Shown here one piece after another: positions 8,065-57,251 of a stretch of 64,000 nucleotides of DNA. Source of the stretch: an uncultured Acidimicrobiaceae bacterium (GTDB lineage Bacteria > Actinomycetota > Acidimicrobiia > Spongiisociales > UBA5794); assembly GCA_947259365.1 (NCBI GenBank), contig CAMYMC010000042.1, positions 19,954 to 83,953 on the forward strand, read 5' to 3'. The number at the start of each line of letters is the position of its first letter. Within the stretch, counting starts at the first letter, position 1. Below the pieces are notes generated by a model, which saw only the letters and a program-made list of their open reading frames with translations, did no database searches and was not told the origin of the DNA. The position numbers and the translations under genes are program-made.

Positions 8065-8151
8065 GGTGGCCCCCCGGCTCGGATCGACGAGGCGCAGCGT
8101 ACCGGTGGGACACGTCGGGGTCGGTGCAGCGTGCGCCAGCGATGCGGGTGC

Positions 8152-10533: not shown

Positions 10534-12687
<2,154 letters not shown>

Positions 12688-27727: not shown

Positions 27728-27801
27728 GCGGGTGTAGTTCAACGGTAGAACGTCAGCTTCCCAAGCTGAAGACGGGGGTTCGACTCCCCTCACCCGCTCC
27801 A
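27728..27801 (+). tRNA. tRNA-Gly (anticodon CCC)
   Basis: GCGGGTGTAGTTCAACGGTAGAACGTCAGCTTCCCAAGCTGAAGACGGGGGTTCGACTCCCCTCACCCGCTCCA. 7-bp acceptor stem, anticodon loop TTCCCAA, TPsiC arm GGGGGTTCGACTCCCCT, encoded CCA. Confidence 0.9.
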
Positions 27802-32114: not shown

Positions 32115-35100
32115 TCCCACTCCTCCAGAATCTCCCCGAGCCGGCTGAGCCTGCCGCCCACCCGGGCCCGGCTCCGCTCGAGCGCAGAGCCGGCGGCGAG
32201 CAGGACGGCGGCACCGACGGCGCCGACGATGAGCCAGGTCCCGCCGGCGAGGCCGCGGCGGGCACCTTCGACGACCGGGATGGCAACCGAGAGAACGATC
32301 GCAGTGGTGACGAGCGCCAGGCCGAGGATCGCCCGCCGCCGCACCGCGGTGGCGGCGCCCCACGCAAGCAGGGCGAACCCTTCGGCGGCGACGAGAACGC
32401 CGTAGCCGAGGCCGGTGAACATACTCCACATCGCCAGCGTCGGCGGGACGGCCATGACGAGCCATTCGAGCGCTCTGAGCAGCTTCGCCCAGCGCCCCCG
32501 GGCTCGGCCTGCACTGCGCTCGAGCTCGATGACGGCGAGGACGACGATGCCGATCGGGATCACCGTGCCGTGGAGGCCGAGCGAATTGACCTCACCGGCG
32601 ATGAGCAGCGCCGCGGCGAGCCACGTGACGAGTGCGCCCTGGATGAGAGTGACCCGCCGTGTGCCGGCGCCAAAGGCGGCAACGGAGCCACCGGCGACGG
32701 CGAGGGAGATGCCGACCTCGAACGACAGGAAGCCGAAGGCGGCGGCCGCGGCGACGAGCGAGACGACTCCGAGGGCGAAACCGGCGCCAGACAGCGCACC
32801 CAGGGAGCGGCCCGACCACGGAACGCCGCCGCCCACGGCGACGAGGCCCATGATCGCGACCCCGATGACGGCCGGGGCAACGAGGACGTCGGCGGTGATG
32901 GCGGCCGCGGTGAGGTAGGCGGCGGACACCCCGACGAGGGCGGCCGCCGTGTTGCGGAGCCCGCGGACGAAGGCGCTGGAAGGAGCGAGGGCCGCGGCGT
33001 AGGCGGCGGCGACCGCCGCCACGGTCGCAGACAGGGCGAACGCCCCCGCGTCCTCGTGACTGTTGTAGCCCAGTGCGATCGCGCCCACTCCGGCGACTCC
33101 GGCGGCGCTGCGGAGGGGAACCAACCAGACACGAGCCCGGACCGAACTCCGGGAGTGCACGGCAAGAGAGGAACCGGCGGCGACGATGGCCGCACCGACC
33201 AGGGTGTTGGCCCGGGCGGCGACGGTGAGATCGAACGCCGCCATCAACGCCACCACGGAGGCTGCAGCGAAGACGATCGAAGTGCTCACAACGGTCGCCT
33301 CCACCAACGCGGTGCCCAGCACGCCGATGGCCAGTGCTTCGACCCCGAGGGCAATCCCGAGCACGAGCTCTCCGTCGATGGCGGGAGCGACAAAGGCGGA
33401 GAACACCGCGTAGCCGATGGCGACCTGGGCCACGGCCAGCGGCTGCCACCGCCACAGTGCTGCGACCTGGGACCGTCCGCCGAGGGACGTGAGCCCACCG
33501 AAGACGGCGACGAGGGCGGCGCCGAGCGCAGCCGAGAGCGCGAACCGGGTGCCGGCGTCCGCGCCGAGCGCGGCGTCGGCAAACGAGAGTGCAGCGGTGG
33601 CGAGGGCGGCGCTCACCCAGGCGAGCCGGGCTGCCCGCCCGATAGTGGCGACGACGGCGGTCACGACCGCCTCGACCCCGAGCACGGCGGCGGCGAGCCG
33701 GAACACAGCGTCGGAATCGAACTCGACGGCGCCTGTCACAACCGCGACCGTCAGGCCGACCTGGCCGACGGCGTGGGCTTGAAGGGCCCAGCGTGCCAGC
33801 CGCCGGGGCACGGCGCGATGACCCGACACCGCCGCGATGACTGCGATGACGCCACTGGCGGCTCCTGCGGCGATGATCCGCGACCCGGGTGCCGGCCAGA
33901 GCCACTCAACTCCCGACCAGCCCGCGGCGACGGCGAACGCGGCCGCAGTCCAGGCCAGCGGGCTCCACAAGGCGGTGTCACGCCGAGCCTCGGCGAGAGA
34001 CGCCGCCGCTGCCGCCGCGACCGCCAGTGTGATCGGCAGCCATCCCCCTCCGGCGGAGACGCCCGCAGCGGCAAAGAGCACGACCGACGCATAGGCGAAC
34101 CCGGCTTCACGGCGCGCCCAGTAGAGGGCCGCGGCGAGAACGGCGCCGGCGAGCAGCACCGTGGAGGCCGTGCCGGCGAACAGGGCGGAGACGATGGCGA
34201 CCCCGGCGGTGCCGAGACCTGCGGCCAGGGTGCCGGCGGCGGGCCGGTGGACGAGATCCCAGCCGTAGCGACCGGGGAGCAGCACGGATCCGAGGGAGAG
34301 GGCGAACGCGAGCGGCATCCACCACACCGGATCCTCGAGGAGGTTCACCCAGCGGCCGGCGACATCACCGTATGCGAACCCGACGAGGACGGACACGGGG
34401 AGCGACACGCCCCCGGTGGCGGTGCCCCATCCGAGAACGGCGAAGCAGCCGGCCGCGACGACGGCGAGCAGCCACACGACCCTGCCGTCGGCGAACCCGT
34501 ACCCGACGATCGCAGGGAGGACGCCCAGCATGACGCCGACGGCGGCCCGGAGCCAGGGTGACGTCAACCCGGGATCGCCGCCGCGACGCCGGTTGAGCAC
34601 GGCAGATGTCGCGACGACGACGGCGGCGATCCCGAACACGAGGAAATGGACGTCCCGGACGGCGAGGCCGACCTCGACCGCACCCAGGGCGGCGGCGACG
34701 GTGGCGAGCGGCCACGAGAGCGAGGTGAGGAACGGCCGCTTCGTGGTCGTTGCCACCACGGCGGTGAGCAGCGCCGCCGAGCCGAACGCCACGCCGGCGG
34801 GGCCGCGGAACGGGGCGGCGACGAGGACGGCACCCAGGGCGGCGGCGTGGGCGGCGACGAGGGCGAGCCTGCACATCACGCCCCGGGACCGTCCGCACAT
34901 CCACAGATTGACCCACGACAGGGTGACGAGTGATGCCGTCAGTCGCCAACCCGGATCGGGGAACACGTCGAATCGGTCGGCGGCGAGGATGACGAGGGGA
35001 TGGGCGGCGGCGACTGCGATGACTGCGGGAGCAAGCCGGATCGCAGGTCCGAGAGCTTCGACGAGAAGCTCCACCAGCGGCGCCCCGCCGCGGGACACAC

Positions 35101-37018
35101 GATGGGCCTCGACGGCGTGGGTGGCCACGATGACGCCCAGTGCGACGAGCACCCCGTCTTCGATCCGGGGATGAACGATGAGCGCCGCGTACACGAACAC
35201 GTGGCCGACGACCCCGGCGGCGAGCACCGCAGTCCTGCCGATGCCGGCGATCGAAACAGCGACGAGGACCGCGCCGACGACGCCGAACGCGACGACATCG
35301 GCCATGGCGGTCCCGTAGGTGCCCCACCCGGATACGGCCCGGCCCGTCATCGCCGTGCCGGCGACGAGTGCGGTCGCCGCGAGCGGTATCCGGACGGGGG
35401 CTGCGACGTCGAGGAGGGCGGCGGTGACGGCCGTCATCAGGATCACGGTGCCGCGGACCCCGAGCGAGGTGACGAATCCGTCGGGCCCGGGGACCACCGC
35501 CATCGCCGCGGCGGCGAAGCCCAGTATCGCTGCCGGGCCGAGCGCATAGGACCGCAGCGGATCGAACCGGCCCGATGCGAACCGGCCAACAGCACATGCG
35601 ATGGAAAGCCCGCCGAGCGTCTGAGGGATCGCCGCGGTCGGGACGAGGCGGATCACTCCGGCACCGATGGCGACGAGCGGAGGGATCCACAGCTCCACGG
35701 CCTGGTGGACCCGCCCGAACCCGACGGGCGCCAGCTCCGCGGTCACCGTGCGAACCGAGCTCGAGATCCCACGGGCGACGGTGAGCCCCGAGACGAACCC
35801 CCACCCGATGACGGCGGTGACGGGGTCGATCGTGGCGAGGCCGAGCCCGATGAACCCGGCGATGCGGGCAACGTGGACGACAAGGACGCTGCGACCTCCT
35901 ACGACCCGGTCCAGCGCCCAGATCCCGATGCCGTACGCCACCAGCCCCAGCCCGAGCCACGATGGATCGAGTCCGATCGTCGGCGTGAGACCGAGGGAGA
36001 TGCCGACCGAGACGTATGAAAGGGTCCGCAGCACGGGGGAGATGTCGCGGCGGAGCCGGACCGGGAGGCCCGCCCAGGCGAAGCCGGTGTCGGACGCGAC
36101 CCACAGCACCGCGGCGGTGAGCAGTGAAGCGACGATGATCGCCGGGGCGAGGTCGGTCAGGCCGGGATCAGCGAGGCCGGCCACCCTCGCGTCGTTGAAG
36201 GCAAAGACGAGGGAGAGGACGAGGACGGCGGGCGCGGCGACCGACGCCATCCGCACGGTGGGAGCGGCCAGCGGAGCGAGCGCAGGGACGGTGCGCATCC
36301 TGGAGGCGAGCGCCATCGAGATCGCGATGGCGCCGAGGACGGTGAACAGTTGCGGCGCGGACATGCCGTGCTCCCAGAAGAGGCCGAGCGCTCCGGCAGC
36401 CGCCCAGATCATCGGCGCAGCGAGGTACGCGTAGATGCGCTCACGCCGCGCCAGTCGGTGATAGACGGTGGCGGTCACCACTCCGACGACGGCGTAGGCG
36501 GGCCACCTGGCGGGTCCGTTGACGTCGGGCGGCCACATCGACCCGTCGCGGAAGAGCGCAGACATCATCACCGGGATCGTGAGCCCCCCGATGAGCCCGA
36601 CTGCGGTCGCGGTAGCGGGGAGGTCGCTCCGTCGCCCCAGGTAGTGGGCGAGTCCGAAGAACAGCGCAGGCGTGGCGACGAAGAACACCGGTCGGAGGTT
36701 CTTGACCGTGACGAGGTCGCCGAAGTAGCCGAAGGCGAAGAACACGAAGATGACGAGGATCGCGAGCAGGACGCCGAGGTAGGTGAGGGCATTAGCGGCG
36801 AAGTCGGCGCTGAACGCCCGCCATGTCCTCTTCATCCGGTCGGCGACGCTCGATCTCGCCTTCTCCCAGCTCCGGCCGGATCCCGGCCCGCCGGCCGGTC
36901 CCCCTGCCGGCCGGCGGACTCGGGCACCCTGCCGTCCGTCGACGGGGTCGGCGATCTCGCCTGGCGCCTTCCGTGGAGATGTCTTCGCCGATGTCTGGTG
37001 CGGGGATGTGTCGTGCAT
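32111..37018 (-). CDS. giant polytopic integral membrane protein (about 1635 aa, >35 predicted TM helices), hypothetical
   Basis: One uninterrupted ORF. Ala/Val/Gly/Leu-rich with regularly spaced hydrophobic helices; only the first about 60 aa are hydrophilic. Start uncertain (ATG 37018 or Met62 at about 36835). Opposite-strand ORFs here are shadows. Confidence 0.6.
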   Translation of the reverse strand: MHDTSPHQTSAKTSPRKAPGEIADPVDGRQGARVRRPAGGPAGGPGSGRSWEKARSSVADRMKRTWRAFSADFAANALTYLGVLLAILVIFVFFAFGYFGDLVTVKNLRPVFFVATPALFFGLAHYLGRRSDLPATATAVGLIGGLTIPVMMSALFRDGSMWPPDVNGPARWPAYAVVGVVTATVYHRLARRERIYAYLAAPMIWAAAGALGLFWEHGMSAPQLFTVLGAIAISMALASRMRTVPALAPLAAPTVRMASVAAPAVLVLSLVFAFNDARVAGLADPGLTDLAPAIIVASLLTAAVLWVASDTGFAWAGLPVRLRRDISPVLRTLSYVSVGISLGLTPTIGLDPSWLGLGLVAYGIGIWALDRVVGGRSVLVVHVARIAGFIGLGLATIDPVTAVIGWGFVSGLTVARGISSSVRTVTAELAPVGFGRVHQAVELWIPPLVAIGAGVIRLVPTAAIPQTLGGLSIACAVGRFASGRFDPLRSYALGPAAILGFAAAAMAVVPGPDGFVTSLGVRGTVILMTAVTAALLDVAAPVRIPLAATALVAGTAMTGRAVSGWGTYGTAMADVVAFGVVGAVLVAVSIAGIGRTAVLAAGVVGHVFVYAALIVHPRIEDGVLVALGVIVATHAVEAHRVSRGGAPLVELLVEALGPAIRLAPAVIAVAAAHPLVILAADRFDVFPDPGWRLTASLVTLSWVNLWMCGRSRGVMCRLALVAAHAAALGAVLVAAPFRGPAGVAFGSAALLTAVVATTTKRPFLTSLSWPLATVAAALGAVEVGLAVRDVHFLVFGIAAVVVATSAVLNRRRGGDPGLTSPWLRAAVGVMLGVLPAIVGYGFADGRVVWLLAVVAAGCFAVLGWGTATGGVSLPVSVLVGFAYGDVAGRWVNLLEDPVWWMPLAFALSLGSVLLPGRYGWDLVHRPAAGTLAAGLGTAGVAIVSALFAGTASTVLLAGAVLAAALYWARREAGFAYASVVLFAAAGVSAGGGWLPITLAVAAAAAASLAEARRDTALWSPLAWTAAAFAVAAGWSGVEWLWPAPGSRIIAAGAASGVIAVIAAVSGHRAVPRRLARWALQAHAVGQVGLTVAVVTGAVEFDSDAVFRLAAAVLGVEAVVTAVVATIGRAARLAWVSAALATAALSFADAALGADAGTRFALSAALGAALVAVFGGLTSLGGRSQVAALWRWQPLAVAQVAIGYAVFSAFVAPAIDGELVLGIALGVEALAIGVLGTALVEATVVSTSIVFAAASVVALMAAFDLTVAARANTLVGAAIVAAGSSLAVHSRSSVRARVWLVPLRSAAGVAGVGAIALGYNSHEDAGAFALSATVAAVAAAYAAALAPSSAFVRGLRNTAAALVGVSAAYLTAAAITADVLVAPAVIGVAIMGLVAVGGGVPWSGRSLGALSGAGFALGVVSLVAAAAAFGFLSFEVGISLAVAGGSVAAFGAGTRRVTLIQGALVTWLAAALLIAGEVNSLGLHGTVIPIGIVVLAVIELERSAGRARGRWAKLLRALEWLVMAVPPTLAMWSMFTGLGYGVLVAAEGFALLAWGAATAVRRRAILGLALVTTAIVLSVAIPVVEGARRGLAGGTWLIVGAVGAAVLLAAGSALERSRARVGGRLSRLGEILEEWE

Positions 37019-46930: not shown

Positions 46931-48916
46931 TCAGTCGCCGACCGACCTCGAGAACCGGACCATCCCGGTGACGAACGCCGCCATGGCGAGGACAAGACCG
47001 GCGGCGAGGACGAGCGACGGCAGCAGCGACGACGGCCGCTCCCGCTCGGCGATGACCTCGACCGGCGGCAGCACGCCGGCCTCGGCGACGGGTGCAACCG
47101 GCGGCACCTCCGGGGTCGCCTCGGCTGGGGCCGGCGGCGGCGACGCACCCGGCTCGACGACGAGGTCCCCGACCATGCCCCCGTCGGCGTGGCCCGGGAT
47201 GTTGCACACGAACCCGAACGCCCCGGTCGCCTCTGGCACGGTGAAGGTGATCGCGCCGCTCCCGCCGGCGTCCACGAAGACGAACACACCCAGGTCGGGG
47301 ATGTCGATGTTGTGTGGAGCCACGCCTGCGTTGCGGAGCCGGAGCGTGACCTCCGCACCGGCGGGGACCGTGATGGACGATGGGGTGAAGGCGAACTCGG
47401 TCGACTCGACGTCGACGACGATCGGTTGGGGGACGGAAGCCGCCGTTGCCGCCGCCACGGCGGGCACAGGCGTCGTCGCCGGTAGGGGAGCGAACGGCGA
47501 GGTGTTGCTCCGGAGCCTGAGCAGCTCACTCGCCGCGTAGAGACCCGTCGCCGTGTCGAAGTATTCGGTCACGACCTCCCAGCGGCCGTCGTCGACGTCG
47601 AAGGCCACCTCCTCGAGGAGGACGGGCGGCAGCGACGTCCTCGGCACCGCGGGGTGCCCGAGATCGTCCGCGGAGGCTGCATCGATCTCGACCGAATCGA
47701 GGATCGACGCCGGGTCGGGCACCGCGCGCATCATCCCGGAGCTGCTCACGACGGCGTCGATGAAGGAGGCGAGCGTCGCCTCGATGGTCGTGGCTTCGCG
47801 GGTCCCGGTGCGCAGCACCCGGTACGCGTGGAGGGCGCCGACGAGGGTCCCGACGTCCCCGGTGGTGAGCACCCCGGCGTCGGCGAAGACGGCGCGGTCC
47901 CGCTGGTACGCCCCGAGAAGCCGCCGTGCCGTGGCGTCGAGCACCGCGTCGCGGTCGCCGGCGCCGGTCACCGCGGCCAGCTCGGCGAGGCCGCGCACGA
48001 CGTGGGCGCGCTCGACGCTCGACGCCGGCACCAAGGCGGCCAGCCGGCCAGCGAGGCCGTCCGCCGAGGCAAGGGCATCGCGGCGCGAGGCGGGATCGTC
48101 AACGAGGGCCGCATACCGCGTCAGCGCCAGGATGCCCTTCGCCAGTTCGTCCACTCGCTCCGGCTCGGTCACCGCGAGCGCCTCGAACAACGACTCGGCT
48201 CCGGAACGGAACCAGGACGCGAAGGCCTCGTCGGCGTAGACGCCCCCGTACGGCGAATCCGGGGTGAGGAGGAGACCGAGTTCGGACAACGCCCGCAACA
48301 TGAGGTACTGGTCGACGAGCCGAGGCGGCGACTCCAGCGGCCGCACTTCGCCGTCGGCCCAGTCCACCGCTCCGTAGAACCCGTCTTCGCGAATCATGTT
48401 CACCATGGCGAAGTCAGCCTGGGCCTTCGCCTCGGTGAGATAGAGCTGGGCCCGGAGCCGGCCCAACGAACCCGCCGCGGAACCGGGATCGCCGTCGTCG
48501 GCGGCGAGGACTCTCGCCGCTTCGACCTCGGCGAGGATGGCCATCGCCTGGGCATGCGGCGTGATCTCGGTCTCGAGCTCGGTCCACGGCTCGGTGCCGC
48601 CCGACCCCGCCGGCTGACCGCCTGCGTACACCGCCTGGAGGAAGACTGCGCCGTCGGGCACGGCGGCAGTGTCCTCACCGGGAGCTGCTGCCTCTGCCAT
48701 CCGCGCCACGAACGACGCCGGCGGTTCGAACGGCACACCGAGGCCCGAGCCGAGGGCCACGTGGTCGATGAGGTAGCGGCCGTACCAGAACCCATTCCAC
48801 AACGCCGTCTCCTCCCGGCCTGATTCGGCCTGGTCGCCAGCGGCGGCCGCCGAGGGAAAGGAGAGAAGGCCGGCCACGACGGCCGCCGTCACTGCCATGC
48901 GCGGTACTCGTTGCAT
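46931..48916 (-). CDS. membrane-anchored protein: signal peptide, about 500-aa alpha-helical domain, C-terminal cupredoxin (type-1 Cu) domain, Pro-rich linker, C-terminal TM
   Basis: Cupredoxin ligands H (VAPHNID), C/H (FVCNIPGH), M (GGMVG). C-terminal helix LLPSLVLAAGLVLAMAAFVTGMV. ATG 48916 (alternative 48898). Confidence 0.65.
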   Translation of the reverse strand: MQRVPRMAVTAAVVAGLLSFPSAAAAGDQAESGREETALWNGFWYGRYLIDHVALGSGLGVPFEPPASFVARMAEAAAPGEDTAAVPDGAVFLQAVYAGGQPAGSGGTEPWTELETEITPHAQAMAILAEVEAARVLAADDGDPGSAAGSLGRLRAQLYLTEAKAQADFAMVNMIREDGFYGAVDWADGEVRPLESPPRLVDQYLMLRALSELGLLLTPDSPYGGVYADEAFASWFRSGAESLFEALAVTEPERVDELAKGILALTRYAALVDDPASRRDALASADGLAGRLAALVPASSVERAHVVRGLAELAAVTGAGDRDAVLDATARRLLGAYQRDRAVFADAGVLTTGDVGTLVGALHAYRVLRTGTREATTIEATLASFIDAVVSSSGMMRAVPDPASILDSVEIDAASADDLGHPAVPRTSLPPVLLEEVAFDVDDGRWEVVTEYFDTATGLYAASELLRLRSNTSPFAPLPATTPVPAVAAATAASVPQPIVVDVESTEFAFTPSSITVPAGAEVTLRLRNAGVAPHNIDIPDLGVFVFVDAGGSGAITFTVPEATGAFGFVCNIPGHADGGMVGDLVVEPGASPPPAPAEATPEVPPVAPVAEAGVLPPVEVIAERERPSSLLPSLVLAAGLVLAMAAFVTGMVRFSRSVGD

Positions 48917-49229
48917 CGGAGACCCGGGTGCTCGTCGGTTTCGTCCGGACACGATGCCGCAGCAACGGGCCGCCGCTGCAGAGCCCTTGGACCCGGATTC
49001 GGAGGCCACCACCCCATCCGATCGGACGAGGCCCGACACTCGGCAGGGTCGTCCAACGGGTCGGCCGTGCCCGTTCGCCCGGACGAGGGCGGGTCTTAGG
49101 TCCCTGACCGACCAAGTTCCGCCTCGGCCGAAAAGACGATGACGCGGAGACGAAGAGTCGGATATCGGACTGAGCCGCGGTTCCGGATGATGACGCCAGG
49201 CATCGAACACGACCACAGGGAGGTTTGAA

Positions 49230-50429
49230 ATGCCATCTCGACGGCTTCCGGGCCATCGCAGAGCCGTCTTCGTGCTGGCCATGGTGGTCGGCCTCATCGC
49301 CGCGCTCGCCGTACCGGCGTTTGCGAGCCACGGCTCGACGACGATCGACGTCGGCATCGCCAACGACGGAAGCACGGGGCGCGACAACTACGACGATTCG
49401 GACATCTCCGTGCTCGCAGGAACACCGATCACGTTCTTCTTCGACAACGGATTCCACAACGTCGTCTGGACCTCGGCGAACCCGGGTGGTCTCGCCGACT
49501 CCCCGGCGGCACCCGGTGGTGACGCGGTCGGGTCCAGCTTCACCGTGACGCCCACGGTCGCAGGAACGTACATCTACTTCTGCTCGATCCATACCAACGC
49601 TGCGACGGCGCTCGCTGCCACGGACTTCGGCGCCGGCCGGCCGGCCGAGATGTACGGTCGCATCGCGGTGACCGCCGACAGCACGCCGCCGGTGTGGGGC
49701 GCAGGATCCGCGACGGCGACCGCCGTTAGCGCCAGCCAGATCGATCTGACGTGGCCGGCGGCAACCGACGACTCCGGGTCCGTCCAGTACGAGGTCTACG
49801 AGGCCCAGGGCGCAACCCAGCCCGCCAAGCCCGGGGCGCCCGTCGCCACGGTCGGCGGCACCAGCACCTCTCGGACCGGCCTCAGCGCCGGCGTCCACTA
49901 CTGGTACTGGATCACAGCCGTCGACGGGACGGGGAACGCAGCAAGTCCCGATCAGCAAGCGGATGCTACGACCAGCTCCGTCGCAGCATTTGCGAACACC
50001 CAGCAGACGATCCAGTTCTCGGTGAATCCGGCGCTGTCGATCAACGTGACCCCGTCGCTGCTCGACCTCGGGACGCTCAACCCGTTGACGAGCCCGACCG
50101 GCACGGGTCAGGCGACCGTCAACGTCGAGTCGAACGACTCCTGGTCGCTGAACCTTCGCTCGATCGGCGCGGACGGCGTGTCCGGAGGTGCCGACGACGC
50201 GTTCTTCACCTCCGGCGGCAACCAGATCCCCGTCTCGCGGGCGACCTGGGACGATCCGGCGAGCGGTGGCGGACCGGCGGCGCTCAGCGACACCGATGCC
50301 GTCGTCGTGACCGGCCAGCCCGCAGGGGCATCGGCGGTCACGATCGACTACTCGATCACGCTCCAGAGCACGGACCCCGCAGGGACGAACTACGAGACCG
50401 TCATCCTCTACACCGTGACCCAGCCCTAG
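49230..50429 (+). CDS. secreted cupredoxin-domain protein with fibronectin type III domain
   Basis: RBS CAGGGAGG. Signal peptide. FHNVVW...YFCSIH...EMYG copper-site residues. FN3 (IDLTWPAATDDSGSVQYEVYEA...YWYWITAVD). Confidence 0.65.
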   Translation: MPSRRLPGHRRAVFVLAMVVGLIAALAVPAFASHGSTTIDVGIANDGSTGRDNYDDSDISVLAGTPITFFFDNGFHNVVWTSANPGGLADSPAAPGGDAVGSSFTVTPTVAGTYIYFCSIHTNAATALAATDFGAGRPAEMYGRIAVTADSTPPVWGAGSATATAVSASQIDLTWPAATDDSGSVQYEVYEAQGATQPAKPGAPVATVGGTSTSRTGLSAGVHYWYWITAVDGTGNAASPDQQADATTSSVAAFANTQQTIQFSVNPALSINVTPSLLDLGTLNPLTSPTGTGQATVNVESNDSWSLNLRSIGADGVSGGADDAFFTSGGNQIPVSRATWDDPASGGGPAALSDTDAVVVTGQPAGASAVTIDYSITLQSTDPAGTNYETVILYTVTQP

Positions 50430-50445
50430 GAGGCGAACGACGCAG

Positions 50446-51387
50446 ATGAGACGCCCACTAGGAGTGACTGCAGCACTTCTCGTGATGGCCTCGCTGGTGA
50501 TGGGATCCGCGGCGGCTGCAGATAACGCCGTGGATCCCATCGTCGACTTCGCCGTCAGCCCTTCCCGGCTCGAGCTGAGGGTCGAGCCGGGTGACGCGCT
50601 GGAGGTGCCGATCGAGGTGCTCAACCGGGGGACGACGCTGACGCTCGACACGTACGTCGAGGACATCGGCATCCCCCTCGGCGAGCTCGTCGACCCCGAC
50701 GAGCTCGCCTTCACCGCGAGCCGGTGGGTGACGTTCGCCGCACCGACGCTGGCCGTGGAGCCGGCGGCGACCGGGCAAGCCCTGTTGCGGATCGCGATCC
50801 CCGAGACGACCCCGTCCGGGGGCTACCACGCCTTCGCGTTCTTCCAGAGCCGGCCGATCGAGGGTGGCCACGGCATCGTCCCCGCAGGCCGGATCGGGAT
50901 CACCCTCCTCCTCGAGGTCGCCCCCGGCGACAAGGAGCTGGTTCGCGCCGCCAGGGTCAGCGAGGAGAAGCTCTCCGTTCGCTGGAACGGACCGTTCGAC
51001 CCCGACGTCGTGGCGAGGACCACGATCGACAACACCGGCGAGGCGCACCTCGTCACCGGTGGCGTCCACACCTACCGGCGGTGGCCGGGCACCGCCGCAG
51101 CCGACGTCCGTGTCGGGCCGCACACGACGCTACGGGGGACGAGGCACACGTTCGAAACGACGTGGGATGCGGTGCCCCTCATCGGCAAGGTCACATTGAC
51201 GAGCGAGCTCGTCTACCAGGTGACGCCCGACGACCTCCCCGTGATTCTGACCCAGCACACGATCTGGATCATCCCGTGGCACCTCATCGGCGTCCTGCTC
51301 GCCGCCGCCACGATGGCCGTCTTCGTCATCCGGCGGAGACGGAACCGCACAACACAGATTCCATGGAGAGAAACGGAGTTCGCATGA
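50446..51387 (+). CDS. surface protein with signal peptide and C-terminal TM anchor plus RRRRNR stop-transfer, hypothetical
   Basis: Beta-rich about 250-aa ectodomain; C-terminal WHLIGVLLAAATMAVFVIRRRRNR. Confidence 0.5.
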   Translation: MRRPLGVTAALLVMASLVMGSAAAADNAVDPIVDFAVSPSRLELRVEPGDALEVPIEVLNRGTTLTLDTYVEDIGIPLGELVDPDELAFTASRWVTFAAPTLAVEPAATGQALLRIAIPETTPSGGYHAFAFFQSRPIEGGHGIVPAGRIGITLLLEVAPGDKELVRAARVSEEKLSVRWNGPFDPDVVARTTIDNTGEAHLVTGGVHTYRRWPGTAAADVRVGPHTTLRGTRHTFETTWDAVPLIGKVTLTSELVYQVTPDDLPVILTQHTIWIIPWHLIGVLLAAATMAVFVIRRRRNRTTQIPWRETEFA

Positions 51388-51872
51388 AGAACCGGTTGAC
51401 CATCCTTGCCGGGGTGACGGGGGTGCTTCTGGGGCTGTTCCTGGTCGGCACGGCGTGGGCGGCGACGACGACGGTCTCGCTCACCGTCGACAACAAGTTC
51501 GTCCCCGGGAGCCCCACCATCGAGGTCGGCGACACGGTCACGTTCACCTGGGACGGAGGCTTCCACGACGTCGTCTTCGCCGACGGCGTGAGCTCGGGCA
51601 CACCCGTCGGGGACGTCGGAACGACGTTCTCCCGAACGTTCGAGGCGACCGGAACCTACCCGTACGTCTGCACCGTCCACGAGGCGCTCGGCATGACGGG
51701 CACGATCACCGTGCTCGTCGCCGCCGGAGGCGGCGGTGCGGGAGGCGGCGGTGGCGGTGGCGGACAGCAGCTTCCCTTCACCGGGCCCGAGGACGGCATC
51801 CTCCCGATCGCGGGCGCGGCGCTCGTCGTAGCCGGCAGTCTTGTCCTCCTCCGGCTGAGGCGGGCCGGCTGA
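51384..51872 (+). CDS. plastocyanin-like cupredoxin with C-terminal LPFTG sortase sorting signal
   Basis: Signal peptide. Type-1 Cu ligands H61 (GGFHDVVF), C96-x2-H99-x4-M104 (YVCTVHEALGM). Gly-rich spacer, LPFTG at aa 130-134 (nt 51771-51785), hydrophobic helix and RLRRAG tail. Confidence 0.75.
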   Translation: MKNRLTILAGVTGVLLGLFLVGTAWAATTTVSLTVDNKFVPGSPTIEVGDTVTFTWDGGFHDVVFADGVSSGTPVGDVGTTFSRTFEATGTYPYVCTVHEALGMTGTITVLVAAGGGGAGGGGGGGGQQLPFTGPEDGILPIAGAALVVAGSLVLLRLRRAG

Positions 51873-51875
51873 GCA

Positions 51876-52724
51876 ATGCGTGACCCGTGGGTCGACGCGA
51901 CGGCGACACTGCCGGCCTACCGGCAGCCGACCGCGCCGCGTCGCCACCTCGTGCGGGCCAGCCTCGCCGCCCTCGCCACCGGGATGATCGTCCTCGGCCT
52001 CGGGCTCATGGCGCTCCCCGCCTTCGAGGAGGCGGCCGGCCAGTGGCAACAGCAGGAGCTCGCCACCGAGCGAGACGCCAGCATCACCCGCTACGGAAAC
52101 GCCCTCGCCGCCGCGTACGACGTGGTCGTCTCCGACTTCGAAGACCCCATCGTGGCCTTCGAGATCGGGGCGCTGCCCCGGGCTGCGGACGGGATCATCG
52201 TCGAGCTCGCCCCGGCGACACTGCCCGAGACGGCGTCACCGCCGCTCCCGCCGCCCCCGGCGGCAGGCCATGCACCCGCGTCGGGACCGGCAGCGGCAGC
52301 AGAGCCGGCGCTCGCGTTCGACAACGTCACGATCCGCATCCCCACCATCGGGGTCGACCAGGCCGTCGTCGAGGGGGTCGGGCGCGCCGACCTCAAGGTC
52401 GGGCCGGGGCACTACCCGGGGACGGCGCTCCCCGGTCACACCGGAAACATGGTCATCTCCGGGCACCGCACGACGTACACGAGGCCGTTCCACGACGTGG
52501 ACCTCCTCGCTCCAGGCGACCCGATCATCATCGACGTACCCTCCGGCTCGTTCCGCTACGTCGTCGAGCGGCAGTACGTCGTGGAAGCGACGGATCTCTC
52601 GCCGCTGCTCGCCACCGAGGAGGCGACGCTCACGCTCACGACCTGCACCCCGAAGGGCAGCGCCCGGAAGCGACTCGTCGTCGTCGCCCGGCTTGACGGG
52701 CCGCCGGTGGACGTGACCACGTGA
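51876..52724 (+). CDS. class E-type sortase (transpeptidase)
   Basis: N-terminal TM anchor. Catalytic His (MVISGHRTTY), Cys (TLTLTTCTP), Arg (RLVVVARL). 3 nt after the LPFTG gene. Confidence 0.75.
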   Translation: MRDPWVDATATLPAYRQPTAPRRHLVRASLAALATGMIVLGLGLMALPAFEEAAGQWQQQELATERDASITRYGNALAAAYDVVVSDFEDPIVAFEIGALPRAADGIIVELAPATLPETASPPLPPPPAAGHAPASGPAAAAEPALAFDNVTIRIPTIGVDQAVVEGVGRADLKVGPGHYPGTALPGHTGNMVISGHRTTYTRPFHDVDLLAPGDPIIIDVPSGSFRYVVERQYVVEATDLSPLLATEEATLTLTTCTPKGSARKRLVVVARLDGPPVDVTT

Positions 52725-52754
52725 CGCACCGACCACCCCGGGTCGCACCTACCC

Positions 52755-54491
52755 TTGGCGCCGATGGATGAGGGCACCTTCACCGGGGACTCCGGGCGCC
52801 TCCAACCTTCGTGGTGGCGCGACCTCGGCACGTGGGCGCGGGTGTCGCTCGCCGGGGTGCTCGCCGCCGGCCTACTCGCCATCGGCCTCGGGTGGTTCAT
52901 CCCCCGCGAGGTGGAGCAGCAGTTCCTCGAAGCCCAGATCGAAGAGGACCAGGCCGTCCTCTCCGCGCTCATGAGCACCCAGACGCTCGTCGCCGGAGGC
53001 GCGCCGGACATCGAGGTCCTCGACGCGTTCGTCGAGGAGGCCGTGCTCCGCGGCGACTTCGTCCGGGTGAAGCTGTGGTCGCCGGGAGGACGCGTCCTCT
53101 ACTCGGACGAGCACGCCCTCATCGGGCGCACCTTCCCCCTCGGTGAGGACCTCGGCCACGCCGCGATCAGCGGGCCCGTTTCGCATATCTCGAACCTGTC
53201 GGCCGACGAGAACGTCTTCGAGCGCGACCTCGGCCCGACGCTCCTCGAGACGTACCTCCCGGTGCTCGTCGACGGCGAGGTGGTCGCCCTGTGGGAGGTG
53301 TACCACTCCCTCGACGGGCTCAACAACGCCGTCTCCGGGGTGCGGCTCGCCGTGTGGATCAGCGTCGGGGCGGGGCTGGCGATCCTCGCGCTCTTCATGG
53401 TCTCTGCCTTCGGCAACCTCATCGCCACCGTCCAGCGCCGTCGCCGCGAGGCCGAGGCCCGCTCGGCCGAGCTGGAGACGCTGCTCGAGGTGGCCCGCAC
53501 CACCTCGGAGAGCCTGGACCCGGACGATGTCGCGCAGCGGGCGGTGCGCCTCCTCTACGAGACCGGCGGCTATCACTGCGTGGCCCTCACCCGCACCGAC
53601 GCCGAAGGCGGAGTCGTCCTCCTCGGCCTCGCCGGCGACGAGACCTGCGCCGCCGAGGGCCACGGCGCCGACGCGTCCGAATGCGACCCGCAGATCGCGA
53701 CGGCCGATTCCGAAGGCGGCCTCCTCACGCTCGTCGCCTGCAGCCACGCCGCGACGGCAGGGCACGGCAGCGGGCCGGCCGTCATCCAGGGGGCGGTCGA
53801 GGAGCTGCGCCTCGGCGTCGAACGGGCCGAGCTGTACCACCGGGTGGAGGCGAGCAGAGCCCAGCTGCGTGACGTCATGGACAAGCTCGTGTCGGCTCAA
53901 GAGGAGGAGCGGCAGCGCATCGTCGGCGAGGTCCACGACGGGCTCGGCCAGGACCTCCATCGCGTCCTCTTCGGGATCAGAGGGCTCATCGCCGCCACTC
54001 CCGAGGAGGTCGACACCGAGCTTGCGTCCCTCGAGGAGCTCGTCAACCAGTCGAGCCGCCGGCTGCGAAGGCTCCTCGCCGAGCTGCACCCGTCGGTCAT
54101 CGAGGACGTCGGGCTCGCCGCCTCGCTGCGGGGGCTCGTGGAGCGGATGAGCGAGGACTACGGGCTCCACGTCGAGCTCCAGATCGAGGGATTCTCCGAG
54201 CCGCCCGTCGACGTGCGCCTCTCGGCGTTCCGCATCGCCCAGGAGGCGCTGCAGAACATCGTCAAGCACTCCGGCACCCTCAACGGAGAGCTCACGGTCA
54301 CGCGGGAGAACGGGGTCCTCGCCTTGCGGGTCGCCGACTTCGGCAAGGGCATCGAGGAGGACCCAGGCGCCGGACTCGGCCTGTGGCTCATGCGGGAACG
54401 CGCCGAGGCCCTCGGGGGAACGCTGTTGGTGAACTCTGGGCCGATGGGCACCATCGTCGACGCCCGCTTCCCGGTGGGAGCCGCGGTATGA
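52755..54491 (+). CDS. sensor histidine kinase: 2 TM with about 160-aa extracytoplasmic domain, Cys-rich GAF-like domain, HisKA_3, HATPase_c
   Basis: H-box EERQRIVGEVHDGLGQDL; G-boxes. Five Cys in the cytoplasmic linker domain. Confidence 0.8.
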   Translation: MAPMDEGTFTGDSGRLQPSWWRDLGTWARVSLAGVLAAGLLAIGLGWFIPREVEQQFLEAQIEEDQAVLSALMSTQTLVAGGAPDIEVLDAFVEEAVLRGDFVRVKLWSPGGRVLYSDEHALIGRTFPLGEDLGHAAISGPVSHISNLSADENVFERDLGPTLLETYLPVLVDGEVVALWEVYHSLDGLNNAVSGVRLAVWISVGAGLAILALFMVSAFGNLIATVQRRRREAEARSAELETLLEVARTTSESLDPDDVAQRAVRLLYETGGYHCVALTRTDAEGGVVLLGLAGDETCAAEGHGADASECDPQIATADSEGGLLTLVACSHAATAGHGSGPAVIQGAVEELRLGVERAELYHRVEASRAQLRDVMDKLVSAQEEERQRIVGEVHDGLGQDLHRVLFGIRGLIAATPEEVDTELASLEELVNQSSRRLRRLLAELHPSVIEDVGLAASLRGLVERMSEDYGLHVELQIEGFSEPPVDVRLSAFRIAQEALQNIVKHSGTLNGELTVTRENGVLALRVADFGKGIEEDPGAGLGLWLMRERAEALGGTLLVNSGPMGTIVDARFPVGAAV

Positions 54492-55126
54492 CGCCGGTGA
54501 CCATCATGATCGTCGACGACCACCCGGTCCTCCGCCAGGGCTTGCGCTTCATGCTGCAGCACTCCGAGGAGGTCGAGGTCGTCGCCGAGGCGTCCGACGG
54601 CGAGGAAGCGCTCATCAGACTCGCCGAGTCCCAGCCAGACGTCGTGCTCCTCGACGTGAAGATGCCCGGCATGGACGGGCTCACGACCCTGGAGCTGATC
54701 CGGGACGCGTGGCCCCAGCTGCCGGTTCTCATCCTCTCCATGTACGACGACCCCGAATACGTCGAACAGGCGCTCCACACCGGCGCCGCCGGCTATCTCC
54801 TCAAGACGGTCGCACCCGATGAGCTTGTTCGGGCGGTCGGGGCCGCCGCAGGCGGCGCCGGCTACCTCCAGGCCGAGATCACGAGACCGGTCCTGCGGCG
54901 CTTCGCCTCGTTGACGCCGACCGACATCAAGGTGACCCTGTCCGCCCGGGAGAGGGAGGTGCTCCAGCTCGTCGCCGACGGGATGTCGACGAAACAAGCC
55001 GCGGTCGCTCTGGAGATCTCGGAATCGACGGTAAAGACGTACCTCCGTCAGCTCTTCGACAAGCTCGGCGCCACACATCGCGCCCACGCCGTCGCCCTCG
55101 CCCTCCGCCATCGCATCATCGAGTGA
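54488..55126 (+). CDS. NarL/LuxR-family response regulator
   Basis: REC domain (IMIVDDHP...LLDVKMPGMDG) plus LuxR HTH. ATGA overlap with the kinase. Confidence 0.85.
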   Translation: MTPVTIMIVDDHPVLRQGLRFMLQHSEEVEVVAEASDGEEALIRLAESQPDVVLLDVKMPGMDGLTTLELIRDAWPQLPVLILSMYDDPEYVEQALHTGAAGYLLKTVAPDELVRAVGAAAGGAGYLQAEITRPVLRRFASLTPTDIKVTLSAREREVLQLVADGMSTKQAAVALEISESTVKTYLRQLFDKLGATHRAHAVALALRHRIIE

Positions 55127-55209: not shown

Positions 55210-55692
55210 ATGGCACGCAAGGACATCACGATGAGCGACGCCGAGATCCTGGCGTTTCTCGAAGAGGAGCCACCCCACGTCCTCCAGGTCGCATCGACCG
55301 GCCGGGATGGATTCCCCCACCTCGCCCCGATGTGGTTCGTCGTCGACGACAGCAAGATCGTGTTCCGCTCCTTCACGAAGTCGCAGAAGATCGTCAACCT
55401 CATGCGGGACCCGAAGCTGTCGGTCCTCGTCGAGGCGGGCCACGCCTACTCCGAGTTGCGTGGCGTCATGATCCGGGGAGAGGCCCGCCTCGTCACCGAT
55501 CCGGGCTTCGTGCTCGAGCTCTACGGCAAGCTCGCCGCCCGTTACCCCATGACCGGCAGCGAGCCCGTCGCCCTCGCCCCCGACGAGCTCGAAGCGGCAT
55601 TCGGCAGGCACGCGTCCAAGAACACCGCGGTCGTCGTCGAGCCGGTCAAGGTCGCCTCGTGGGATCACCGCAAGCTCGGCGGCGCCTACTGA
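55210..55692 (+). CDS. PPOX-class (pyridoxamine 5'-phosphate oxidase-like) putative F420/FMN-dependent oxidoreductase
   Basis: Split-barrel fold signature; about 160 aa. Confidence 0.6.
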   Translation: MARKDITMSDAEILAFLEEEPPHVLQVASTGRDGFPHLAPMWFVVDDSKIVFRSFTKSQKIVNLMRDPKLSVLVEAGHAYSELRGVMIRGEARLVTDPGFVLELYGKLAARYPMTGSEPVALAPDELEAAFGRHASKNTAVVVEPVKVASWDHRKLGGAY

Positions 55693-55704
55693 CCACGGAG
55701 CCCC

Positions 55705-56565
55705 TCACCCCCGGTCGAGCGCTCCCTCGAGAACAGCGTGGAGCGAATCAGGGGACTCGACCTCGACGACTGCCGTCGACGGCGCGTGCCTCGTCACGTA
55801 CGCCGCCAGGGTTGCCCGCGAGGCATCATCGACGCCGCCTCCGATGAGGAGGGCGGCAAAGCTGCCGGGGTTGAGCAACTCGAGCGCCGATTCGTCGTCG
55901 ACGACGCCCACCGGCTCGTAGCCGAGCTCGCGCAGCTCGGTGGTGACCCTCCTCGTCGTCGCCGGATGACCGCCGACGACGAGGACGCGCCTGCGGGTCG
56001 CCCTGATTCGCAGCGTCAGCCCTCGCAGCGCCAGCACGAGCCTGCGAATCTGGTCGAGGGTCCTGTCGTCGATCAGCCGGCCCGCCTCGAACTTGTCCCA
56101 CGGATCGGAGATCAGCACCTCCGGTTTCTGCACCATGCGCAGGTCGCTGTGGAGCGCGATGTCCCTGAAATGCGCCTGCGCTCTCGCCGTGCCGAGTCTG
56201 CCTCCCGCTCCGAGGACGGCCGCCGGCTTGAGGTTGAGCGGCGAGCGCGGGGGACGGGACGCCCAGTCGATCGCGTTCTTCAGCACGCCGGTCACCGAGA
56301 AGTTGTACTCGGGGGTGGCGACGAGCAGGGCATCGGCGCCATCGATCTGGTCGCGAAGGCGAACGACGGACGCCGGAAAGCCGTGCTCCCGCTCGTCGTC
56401 CTCGTTGAAGTGCGGCAGGTCGCCGATCTCGGCGATCTCGAGGCTCATGTCGTCGGGCATGACCTTGGCTGCAGCCCGAAGCGTCGCCGTGTTGTACGAC
56501 GCCCGGCGAAGGCTCCCCGAGATGCCCAGGATTCGCAGCTGCGTCGTCTCGACCATGCCGTTCAC
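55705..56565 (-). CDS. NADPH-dependent FMN reductase family protein with C-terminal extension
   Basis: LGISGSLRRASYN; flavodoxin-like fold. Confidence 0.7.
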   Translation of the reverse strand: MNGMVETTQLRILGISGSLRRASYNTATLRAAAKVMPDDMSLEIAEIGDLPHFNEDDEREHGFPASVVRLRDQIDGADALLVATPEYNFSVTGVLKNAIDWASRPPRSPLNLKPAAVLGAGGRLGTARAQAHFRDIALHSDLRMVQKPEVLISDPWDKFEAGRLIDDRTLDQIRRLVLALRGLTLRIRATRRRVLVVGGHPATTRRVTTELRELGYEPVGVVDDESALELLNPGSFAALLIGGGVDDASRATLAAYVTRHAPSTAVVEVESPDSLHAVLEGALDRG

Positions 56566-56621
56566 CCTAGGCGGGGCCCGATGGCGCGAAGGGCGGCAAC
56601 TCAGGGTCCCACCGCAGTAGG

Positions 56622-57251
56622 GTGCCCGGCGTCGTGAGCGGGTATGTGAAGACGACGCTCGACGCGACCGATCTCGAATCCGGAGTCGCGTACAAGCTGC
56701 TCATCGGCCTCGTCGTGCCCCGACCCATCGGGTGGATCGGCACGAGATCGGCCGACGGCGGCCGCAACCTCGCACCCTTCTCCTTCTTCAACGCGGTGGC
56801 GTGGCGCCCGCCGACCGTGCTCTTTTCCACCGAGCTCATCACGAAGTACAAGGACACGCTGCGCAACGTCGAGGCCACCGAGGCATTCACCGTCAACGTC
56901 GTGACCGAAGAGGTCGCGGAGGCCATGAACGTCACCTCGGGGACGTATCCCCCCGACGTAGACGAGTTCGACGTCGCCGGGCTGACGGCTGTCGACGCCG
57001 ACCTCGTGTCTGCCCCGATGGTCGCCGAGGCCAAGGCGAACATGGAGTGCCGGATGACCCGGGTGGTGCGCGTCGGTGAGCCGCCGTCCGCGGCGGTCGT
57101 CTTCGGCGAGGTGCTGCGGCTCCACGTCGCCGACGACGTCCTCGACGAGCGCCTCCGCGTCGACCCCGTGGCGCTGAAGGCCGTGGGGCGGATGGCGGGG
57201 AGGGGTTACACGACGACGAGGGACCTCTTCTTCCTCGAGCGGCCGGACTGA
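56622..57251 (+). CDS. flavin reductase-like (FMN-binding split barrel) protein
   Basis: VPRPIGWIGT...APFSFFNAV motif. Confidence 0.7.
   Translation: MPGVVSGYVKTTLDATDLESGVAYKLLIGLVVPRPIGWIGTRSADGGRNLAPFSFFNAVAWRPPTVLFSTELITKYKDTLRNVEATEAFTVNVVTEEVAEAMNVTSGTYPPDVDEFDVAGLTAVDADLVSAPMVAEAKANMECRMTRVVRVGEPPSAAVVFGEVLRLHVADDVLDERLRVDPVALKAVGRMAGRGYTTTRDLFFLERPD

Follow-up and report, generated by a model that had tools for sequence, protein, structure and literature searches.

Small blue-copper proteins that remain attached to the cell include auracyanin (Chloroflexus, where it is the partner of alternative complex III), halocyanin (haloarchaea) and sulfocyanin (Sulfolobales), all of them membrane-tethered cupredoxin carriers. 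These are plastocyanin-like domains located on the external side of the membrane, in cells that lack a confined periplasm, and their tether is either a lipid or an N-terminal helix. Covalent attachment of proteins to the wall by class E sortases is exemplified by SrtE1 and SrtE2 of Streptomyces, which anchor chaplins via an LAxTG motif. A further mode of surface display is found in the WxL/Csc clusters of Lactobacillales and Listeria (PMC1534035, PMC9772566, PMC10599100), with a layout of small WxL protein, WxL-interacting protein (WxLIP), large WxL protein and LPxTG protein (PMC9772566, PMC10599100). Here we analyze a locus from an uncultured Acidimicrobiaceae bacterium (GTDB lineage Actinomycetota; Acidimicrobiia; Spongiisociales; UBA5794) that has features in common with each of these systems.

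The locus lies within 64,000 nt of contig CAMYMC010000042.1 (assembly GCA_947259365.1, positions 19,954-83,953 of the forward strand), a stretch referred to below as the window. Seven genes, A to G, fill window positions 46931-55126, with gene A on the minus strand and transcribed divergently from gene B, the first of six tightly packed genes on the plus strand. An open reading frame check and Pfam domain matches placed all seven where an earlier, sequence-only reading of this DNA had located them. ATGA start/stop overlaps occur at the C/D and F/G junctions, and the other gaps between B and G measure 3, 16 and 30 nt; on this spacing, the prediction that B-G form one operon with translational coupling is well supported. 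Scans for promoters, terminators and Rfam families returned no match at the locus. Within the window, the module has no respiratory gene beside it, and neither NrfD nor molybdopterin homologues are present. The proteins of the module are small, secreted and predicted with high confidence.

Gene A (46931-48916, minus strand) encodes a secreted type-I membrane protein of 661 residues, comprising a signal peptide, a helical domain of ~480 residues, a cupredoxin domain, a Pro/Ala linker of ~45 residues and a C-terminal transmembrane helix; the hydrophobic segments span residues 7-27 and 628-656. The N-terminal ~480 residues have no Pfam or PDB sequence match. The cupredoxin domain, residues 496-588, scores 41 bits against PF13473 and 29.9 bits against PF00127, and follows an upstream histidine ligand with the copper loop CNIPGHADGGM (C-x4-H-x4-M), in line with the earlier description of a membrane-anchored protein carrying a C-terminal azurin-like domain. 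The copper ligands are kept in five orthologues (loci named: L001, L004, L005 and L035). Protein A matches auracyanin and sulfocyanin weakly, and the best NCBIfam match of its copper loop is the copper-resistance cuproprotein CopI (NF051440, E 3e-10), a match that covers the last 43 residues only (profile positions 138-180) at 40 bits against a cut-off of 280. Its predicted layout gives good support to a protein held at the membrane by the C-terminal helix, with the copper domain set behind the long linker.

Gene D (51384-51872, plus strand) encodes a second cupredoxin, of 162 residues, with a score of 39.8 bits against PF00127 and 54 bits against the halocyanin-domain model, its best model. 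The ligands are H61 and C96-x2-H99-x4-M104; in an alignment of 41 sequences, H61, C96 and H99 are invariant and M104 is present in at least 90%. At the C-terminus, a Gly-rich stalk, whose length varies within the family, leads into LPFTGPED, the hydrophobic helix PEDGILPIAGAALVVAGSLVLLRL and a basic tail, RRAG. No other convincing sorting signal occurs in the window. The earlier proposal of a plastocyanin-like protein ending in LPFTG, a hydrophobic helix and a basic tail was thus correct, and the signal is conserved across the family: in the same 41 sequences P131, G134 and P135 are invariant, T133 and E136 occur in at least 90%, and the substrate motif reads [LMVQ]P-x-T-G-P-E-[DE], with the proline at position 2 never replaced. 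Members of the D family were found only in uncultured metagenome-assembled genomes. Since D is exported, carries a complete LPxTG-type signal and is followed after 3 nt by a sortase gene, it is expected from sequence to be attached covalently to peptidoglycan by that sortase, on a flexible stalk.

The sortase, gene E (51876-52724, plus strand), contains an N-terminal transmembrane helix, a sortase domain (PF04203, 104.8 bits) and, by alignment to 5go5, the motifs GHR and TLTTC, consistent with a catalytic His/Cys/Arg set. Its nearest solved relatives are 5go5 and 5go6, and SrtE1 (5cuw) matches too. The sequence-only reading had called it a class E-type sortase; its position after D stands, and class E is indeed the best NCBIfam class (NF033747, 108.8 bits, with class D at 83-92 and class C at 77 bits), but the score lies below the curated cut-off of 160. 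Protein E thus resembles the class E sortases of Actinobacteria in best-scoring class, nearest structures, N-terminal membrane anchor and actinobacterial host, and differs from them in falling below the class cut-off, in belonging to a single-substrate pair and in facing a substrate with proline at position 2 rather than LAxTG. In all nine related loci, a sortase gene follows D, and we predict that E is dedicated to D. No description of a sortase-anchored cupredoxin was found in the searchable literature.

The third cupredoxin is the N-terminal part of gene B (49230-50429, plus strand), which encodes a secreted protein of 399 residues comprising a plastocyanin-like domain, an FN3 domain and a C-terminal β-domain. 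The copper ligands are H76, C118, H121 and M141, with a His-Met loop of 19 residues, and the AF2 model (pLDDT 87.9) gave plastocyanin and FN3 fold matches. Together with the Pfam matches, these results agree with the secreted cupredoxin-FN3 protein of unusually long Cys-His-to-Met spacing that had been noted from the sequence. In an alignment of 43 sequences, H76 and C118 never vary and at least 90% of members have H121 and M141, the methionine column holding glutamine in the most distant one; a nearly invariant histidine occurs at the mature N-terminus. P0180, which resembles B only distantly, belongs to another type of cluster, one regulated by OmpR.

The C-terminal β-domain of B, of ~135 residues, has the conserved motifs SNDxWSL and YTVTQP. 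A profile of this domain retrieved 154 representative proteins, mostly secreted single-domain proteins of 160-185 residues, none of which has a Pfam or NCBIfam match; judged by this profile, the domain is a member of an undescribed family. Stand-alone relatives are in every case encoded next to C-like proteins, as in L041 (E 6e-28) and in L042, where small, C-like and large proteins occur together. The WxL model PF13731 matched neither B nor its 43 homologues nor 30 stand-alone relatives. The B domain has a single W-S-L motif, with Y-T-V in the place of the second W-x-L, and lacks the Asp/Arg pair at W-8 and W-6 before the first motif. A profile of the small-protein family found nothing meaningful among PDB sequences, tblastn of a small-family member against plasmids yielded only noise, and the upstream 208-residue protein of a Clavibacter DUF916 locus did not match the family. 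In related clusters, P0204 and P0224 have CBM_4_9 heads.

Gene C (50446-51387, plus strand) encodes a protein of 313 residues, whose signal peptide is followed by two Ig-like domains and, at the C-terminus, a transmembrane helix, as had been supposed of a surface protein with a C-terminal membrane segment. It is a remote homologue of the DUF916/DUF3324 WxLIP proteins, related by structure and, remotely, by sequence, and has their architecture of DUF916, DUF3324 and a C-terminal transmembrane helix; a C-family profile searched against PDB sequences gave nothing meaningful. Together, C and the third domain of B would make the locus a WxL/WxLIP-type surface-display cluster, a point that the sequence-only reading had overlooked. 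From the homology of C and the occurrence of the B domain family beside C-like genes, the layout mirrors that of the WxL surface clusters of Firmicutes, except that the heads on display are cupredoxins.

As in the WxL/Csc clusters, there is a protein with two Ig-like domains and a C-terminal transmembrane helix, and a small LPxTG protein, here D, which is a frequent though not obligatory component. Like the large WxL proteins, B is multidomain and secreted, has its anchoring-type domain at the C-terminus and belongs to a family that also contains small single-domain members. Whereas WxL clusters encode at least two WxL-domain proteins (PF13731, dual W-x-L), this one has a single candidate, B, a 'large' protein with no 'small' counterpart, no Pfam WxL domain and one W-x-L motif. 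It further differs in having a dedicated sortase and a two-component system inside the operon, type-1 copper heads, an LPxTG protein that is itself a cupredoxin, and an actinobacterial rather than Firmicutes host. We presume that C serves as the membrane-anchored scaffold for B. Because the B domain has neither a Pfam WxL match nor the second W-x-L motif nor the Asp/Arg pair, the proposed docking of B on C rests on analogy and gene neighbourhood.

Downstream of the sortase lie a sensor histidine kinase, gene F (52755-54491, plus strand), and a NarL/LuxR-type response regulator, gene G (54488-55126, plus strand). In F, transmembrane segments at residues 27-50 and 192-227 flank an extracytoplasmic domain of ~140 residues and are followed by a variable linker and HisKA_3 and HATPase_c domains; G consists of Response_reg (115 bits) and GerE (68 bits) domains, and the two make up a NarL-type pairing. 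Orthologues of G follow the kinase in L001, L002, L005, L035 and L037. Scores against the named equivalogs MctS/MctR and NarX/NarL are far below their cut-offs, so no specific signal can be assigned. This pair had been described as a Cys-rich two-component system with five linker cysteines. The kinase and the NarL regulator do follow E, but the cysteines number four (275, 298, 310 and 329) and are not conserved: a six-orthologue alignment shows conservation of the sensor domain and not of the cysteines, which are missing from the L005 and L037 orthologues. We therefore rejected 'Cys-rich' as a feature of the kinase.

The divergent promoter region between A and B contains a palindrome, TCCGATCGGA, at 49017-49026. 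Even with one mismatch allowed, it occurs once in the 64-kb window, where shuffled sequences give 8.5. Upstream of B, the sequence TCCGANCGGA is present in L001, L037 and L035, in the last of these as a perfect palindrome of 18 bp; L004 has a variant of it, and L005 lacks it. We regard TCCGATCGGA as a candidate operator, which may serve regulator G.

Synteny of the module extends over at least seven lineages of Acidimicrobiia, with protein identity down to ~45-50%. C, D and the sortase gene are direct neighbours in all loci whose flanks are long enough (8-9 loci), B is found upstream of C in five of six, and the kinase/regulator pair follows in six of seven. Linkage of the LPXTG-cupredoxin with its sortase, which the sequence-only reading had put forward for a cross-genome check, is therefore kept across related loci. 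The B, C and D families have ~50 members each, on shared contigs. Cupredoxin domain membership was established with PF00127/PF13473, by threshold or by fold, and the His-Cys-His-Met ligand set is conserved in all three cupredoxin families. Conserved gene order, together with the overlaps and short gaps between genes, supports A-G as one conserved functional unit.

The neighbourhood of the module in related loci includes genes of respiration. In L035/L036, the heme A synthase gene ctaA overlaps the regulator stop by 4 nt, indicating translational coupling, and in L005 SURF1 lies 1.5 kb downstream of the module. In L043, a homologous set adjoins an Fer4/NrfD/TAT-molybdopterin oxidoreductase; this set comprises a cupredoxin fused to the B C-terminal domain, a small cupredoxin anchored at its C-terminus, another that carries a linker and a transmembrane helix, a C-like protein and a kinase of the same type as F (27% identity over the full length, E 2e-30). 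In L005, L035, L037 and L038 the module is accompanied by a gene for a lipoprotein of thioredoxin fold with a CxxxxC motif, which is absent from the window and from L001; L035 and L038 also have a CDF efflux gene in the vicinity. Which respiratory genes lie near the module varies from lineage to lineage, and their presence could be a coincidence.

With a probability of about one half, we read the module as a conserved, lineage-specific envelope unit that builds a three-tier type-1 copper assembly and passes electrons outside the cytoplasmic membrane of a Gram-positive-type cell. Extracytoplasmic electron transfer is the most likely function, and copper handling is its main rival. An electron relay is plausible, with indirect support from the ctaA, SURF1 and NrfD neighbours in relatives. 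B would dock non-covalently on C, as WxL proteins do on WxLIP proteins, the displayed heads being redox copper domains. The cupredoxins would then stand at growing distance from the membrane, A first, then D, then B, and would carry electrons between a respiratory component of the membrane and a partner or substrate located in the wall or outside it. Kinase F may sense an extracytoplasmic signal, and regulator G may act at the TCCGATCGGA palindrome to control the two divergent promoters, that of A and that of B-G.

The small plastocyanin-like domains, and their placement at the outer membrane face of cells without a confined periplasm, are shared with auracyanin, halocyanin and sulfocyanin, and the homologous module of L043 adjoins an NrfD/FeS/molybdopterin complex of the ACIII/Psr type. 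All scores here are, however, below the curated cut-offs of those families, and the lipid or N-terminal helix tether gives way to a predicted sortase link, a WxLIP-like scaffold and a C-terminal helix. Wall attachment would hold D away from membrane complexes, unlike the known tethered carriers, and this counts against a relay. The suggestion of an electron link to the SLH-anchored PQQ dehydrogenase at 5592-7331 found no support: the gene (SLH-GSDH) is real, but it lies 40 kb away, and this partner is absent from every related locus examined. Cultured iron-oxidising Acidimicrobiia show a-type cytochromes and no blue-copper signal in whole-cell spectra (PMC5143472), a study that lends no support to a role in iron oxidation. 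A more far-reaching version of the relay seems doubtful to us, namely a heme-free copper conduit across a Gram-positive-type wall, with A at the membrane, D in the peptidoglycan and B at the wall surface linking the respiratory chain with an electron donor or acceptor outside the cell, for instance Fe(II), Mn(II), humics or a dehydrogenase bound to the wall. If true, it would do with copper what the conduits of multiheme cytochromes do with heme.

Copper handling, though the strongest rival, is on balance unlikely. Here, copper in the region of the wall would be bound or buffered by the surface cupredoxins, either as a means of resistance or to supply copper enzymes such as cytochrome oxidase, with the two-component system sensing envelope copper. 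The ctaA and SURF1 neighbours suit oxidase biogenesis as well as electron delivery, the CxxxxC lipoprotein of four related loci recalls copper-centre maturation factors, and the CDF efflux genes and the histidine at the mature N-terminus of B point the same way; the thioredoxin-like gene, however, is missing from the window and L001. A and CopI-type proteins have in common an extracytoplasmic cupredoxin with a Cys/His/His/Met site and a locally similar loop, but the match is short and far below its cut-off. The His/Met-rich segments that copper-trafficking proteins typically carry are missing from D and B, a difference from the CopI type as well. Nor is a CopA, CsoR or CopZ gene, or any other copper-resistance gene, linked to the module in any related locus. 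Classic plastocyanin-type C-x2-H-x4-M sites, as in D, are electron-transfer sites, which also argues against this account.

Still less probable is an adhesion or surface-architecture complex of the WxL type, in which the cupredoxin folds are structural or binding heads with no redox role. The match of C, the C-terminal domain of B and the small LPxTG protein to the layout of WxL clusters, which have been associated with adhesion and wall binding, would fit such a complex, as would the carbohydrate-binding or glycosidase heads of related clusters (CBM_4_9, and the GH43 and LamG proteins carried by actinobacterial DUF916 loci). Yet three independent cupredoxin families have kept all four copper ligands despite 40-50% divergence in sequence, which is hard to explain without metal binding. 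The grouping of three distinct copper proteins is also found repeatedly, in other lineages alongside respiratory genes. That unrelated envelope genes came to lie side by side by chance, with no function in common, is scarcely credible, being contradicted by synteny: gene order is kept across the lineages, genes overlap inside the operon, and the B, C and D families share the same contigs.

Three blue-copper proteins, by prediction one in the membrane, one on the wall with its own sortase and one on a WxL-type scaffold, under a two-component regulator, are an arrangement not previously described. How cells without an outer membrane retain soluble electron carriers and exchange electrons across thick walls is known mainly for cytochromes and flavins. 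Blue-copper proteins fixed at three levels within the envelope would be a further solution, one based on copper, and would bring with them a new class of sortase substrate. WxL/WxLIP-type display has so far been regarded as an adhesion system of Firmicutes; the locus also extends it to Actinomycetota and further phyla, with a partner domain absent from Pfam and NCBIfam and a cargo that would be redox-active rather than adhesive.

The window has a G+C content of about 70% throughout, and among public sequences its genes have their nearest relatives in MAGs labelled Acidimicrobiia or Ilumatobacteraceae. With gene limits set by open reading frames and third-position G+C, and starts by signal peptides and ribosome-binding contexts, the module at 46931-55126 comprises seven genes, A to G, and open reading frames and domain searches recovered all seven as the sequence-only reading had described them. 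Gene A (46931-48916, minus strand) encodes a 661-residue protein that starts with a signal peptide and ends in a TM helix, which a Pro/Ala-rich linker joins to a cupredoxin domain (PF13473, 41 bits; PF00127, 29.9 bits; copper loop CNIPGHADGGM); for the some 480 residues ahead of the cupredoxin, no family match was found. B (49230-50429, plus strand) encodes a signal peptide, a plastocyanin-like domain that exceeds its Pfam threshold only narrowly, and an FN3 domain. The product of C (50446-51387, plus), a remote homologue of the WxL-interacting protein (WxLIP), matched no Pfam or NCBIfam model; it begins with a signal peptide and has a helix at its C-terminus. D (51384-51872, plus) encodes a plastocyanin-like protein of 162 residues in which a Gly-rich stretch leads into LPFTG, a hydrophobic helix and then RRAG, and the sortase gene E (51876-52724, plus) starts 3 nt past the stop codon of D, as had been noted. 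F and G encode, by Pfam, a HisKA_3 kinase and a NarL-type regulator. ATGA overlaps at the C/D and F/G junctions, with remaining gaps of 3-30 nt, indicate that B-G are tightly coupled as a single operon, which runs divergently from A. It is well supported that the module supplies four exported proteins fixed at different envelope depths, as well as its own sortase and a sensor system. Downstream, a PNPOx-like gene and two reductase genes (FMN reductase and flavin reductase) occupy 55210-57251; the first of these also follows the module in related loci L001 and L002, and the two reductase genes do so in L001.

Three of the four exported proteins are predicted, with good support, to carry intact type-1 copper sites. 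Alignment of 41 members of the D family shows no variation at H61, C96 or H99 and almost none at M104; the loop is of plastocyanin type, C-x2-H-x4-M. In the B family (43 sequences), H76 and C118 never vary, and H121 and M141 are kept in 90% or more; Gln, which is known as an alternative axial ligand, takes the place of Met in the most divergent member. The unusually long Cys-His-to-Met spacing pointed out earlier in B proved to be a family trait, a conserved 19-residue His-Met loop in which the predicted model places a short helix. The copper ligands of A are retained in five orthologues. By this ligand conservation, the sites of A, B and D look functional. The B and D cupredoxin domains are paralogous (33-38% identity), and that of A belongs to a different subfamily.

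The D-family sorting signal reads [LMVQ]-P-x-T-G-P-E-[DE], where both prolines and the glycine never vary. A helix and a basic tail come after it, and a Gly/Thr/Ser/Ala-rich stalk of ~12 to ~60 residues precedes it. Scanning the other open reading frames of the window yielded no convincing sorting signal beyond D. GHR and TLTTC motifs are present in E, whose best alignment is to the solved sortases 5go5/5go6; SrtE1 (5cuw) is matched as well. The proposed assignment of this sortase to class E stands as the best-matching class, but at 108.8 bits it falls below the curated cut-off of 160. Substrates of class E sortases typically carry LAxTG, from which the D-family motif differs. The conserved signal, its uniqueness to D in the window and the motifs of E together suggest that E and D behave as a dedicated enzyme-substrate pair.

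D, C and B served as queries in turn and gave about 50 cluster representatives apiece, mostly from shared contigs. The genes for C, D and the sortase are adjacent in all readable loci (8-9 of 8-9), which bears out the conserved linkage of LPXTG-cupredoxin and sortase. B lies upstream of C in five of six loci, the kinase/regulator pair downstream in six of seven, and A is divergent and upstream in L001, L004, L005 and L035, with module proteins ranging from ~90% down to 45-50% identity. The clustering is more than chance. A reduced version in the L038/L039 lineage (L038:8535-11350) has only C, D, the sortase and a remnant of A's C-terminus, lacking B and the kinase/regulator pair, and marks C-D-sortase as the core.

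The third domain of B, a confidently modelled beta domain at residues ~266-399 (~255-399 correspond to 49990-50429), carries conserved SNDxWSL and YTVTQP motifs. Its profile found 154 matches among 1.84 billion representative proteins, and these relatives matched no Pfam or NCBIfam model. Most are 160-185-residue proteins consisting of a signal peptide and this domain alone; in some it is C-terminal, behind CBM_4_9, another cupredoxin or other modules. Members occur in both high- and low-G+C organisms (P0190-P0223 among examples). Gene context ties the domain to C-like, DUF916-related proteins: L041 has a stand-alone member (643-1146) followed by a 309-residue C homologue (E 6e-28), and in L042 (42% G+C) a stand-alone member (8001-8507) is found together with a C-like protein (E 3e-30) and with a 526-residue protein that has the domain at its C-terminus. 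The L042 arrangement is common to Firmicutes WxL clusters, which are defined by a small / Ig-Ig-TM (WxLIP) / large layout, often with a small LPxTG protein (PMC9772566, PMC10599100). By analogy, the locus may work like a WxL cluster, with which it shares the WxLIP component. We do not file it in that family, since the Pfam WxL model never matches the B-type domain, Y-T-V replaces the second W-x-L motif, and the described Asp/Arg pair is absent; the domain appears to be a so far undescribed equivalent of the WxL domain. Plasmids of the actinobacteria Clavibacter (pCCh, L046) and Cellulosimicrobium (L048) also show a small / WxLIP / large layout without an annotated WxL domain, the DUF916 gene lying between a ~210-residue hypothetical protein and large GH43 or LamG proteins; on a Streptomyces plasmid (L047) its neighbours are instead a calcium-binding protein, a hypothetical protein and an S8 peptidase.

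The kinase F has a conserved extracytoplasmic domain of ~140 residues between two TM helices. The cysteine-rich linker earlier noted for it, with five cysteines, did not hold up: F has four, the cytoplasmic linker bearing them varies among orthologues, and two of five orthologues lack them. In the divergent A/B intergenic region, the palindrome TCCGATCGGA (49017-49026) is the single occurrence in 64 kb even with one mismatch allowed, against 8.5 expected. The core is also present ahead of B in L001, in L037 and, as a perfect palindrome of 18 bp, in L035, and L004 has a variant of it; the element is a reasonable candidate operator for the NarL-type regulator. Elsewhere, the window has a single tRNA gene (27728-27798), its only Rfam match, and a 1635-residue open reading frame with coding-like codon bias (32111-37018, minus strand) and no Pfam match at E 0.001. 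An open reading frame of 717 residues at 10534-12687, 35 kb from the module, has a C-terminal sequence that we take to resemble heavy-metal P-type ATPases.

The most informative relative for function is a homologous module in a separate lineage of 68% G+C (L043:3410-15969, also L044); it encodes a homologue of C (E 1e-30) and a kinase/regulator pair of the F/G type (E 2e-30). Of its three cupredoxins, one is fused to a B-type C-terminal domain, a small one ends in NLPTAGFG (LPTAG), a helix and RPRRS, and in the third a Pro/Thr linker precedes a TM helix at the C-terminus; no sortase lies within 16 kb of the L043 module. This gene set defines the recurring unit as three differently anchored cupredoxins, a WxLIP-like protein and an F/G-type two-component system. 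Directly beside the L043/L044 module lie oxidoreductase genes, encoding an FeS (Fer4) subunit, a membrane subunit of NrfD type and a molybdopterin subunit exported by TAT. In L035/L036, ctaA (heme A synthase) overlaps the regulator stop codon by 4 nt, and a 733-residue protein made up of five or six cupredoxin domains in tandem (L035:14683-16884; PF00127, 171 bits in total) adjoins ctaA and the module; in L005, the distance to a downstream SURF1 gene is 1.5 kb. A thioredoxin-fold lipoprotein (~280-335 residues, weak fold match, ALCSTATCGP motif) is coupled or adjacent to the module at L005:13554-14387, where its gene is coupled to that of the regulator, L035:4307-5182, L037:6639-7646 and L038:7629-8507; no homologue was found in the window or L001. 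The unit neighbours respiratory or oxidase-biogenesis genes in three lineages; in the window itself the module has no such neighbours.

Plastocyanin-type sites are electron-transfer sites, and these sites, the retention of three copper proteins together and the recurring respiratory context favour extracytoplasmic electron transfer as the most likely function, a statement to which, as a whole, we assign a probability of about 0.5. The main rival, copper buffering or delivery, fits the ctaA, SURF1 and thioredoxin-like neighbours equally well; we consider it rather unlikely. A purely adhesive use of the cupredoxin folds is improbable, given the conserved copper ligands. For electron transfer, the SLH-anchored dehydrogenase at 5592-7331 had been suggested as a possible source: the gene exists and encodes a glucose/sorbosone dehydrogenase (GSDH, 138 bits) with a marginal N-terminal SLH-like segment (21.4 bits), but no linkage to the module was found. 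Full-text literature searches on cupredoxin, plastocyanin or blue copper protein combined with sortase or LPXTG, and on cupredoxins in Acidimicrobiia, turned up no account of such a system. The components of the module are all of known kinds, namely cupredoxin, sortase, WxLIP and NarL-type system; what is new is their combination and the unclassified partner domain of B.
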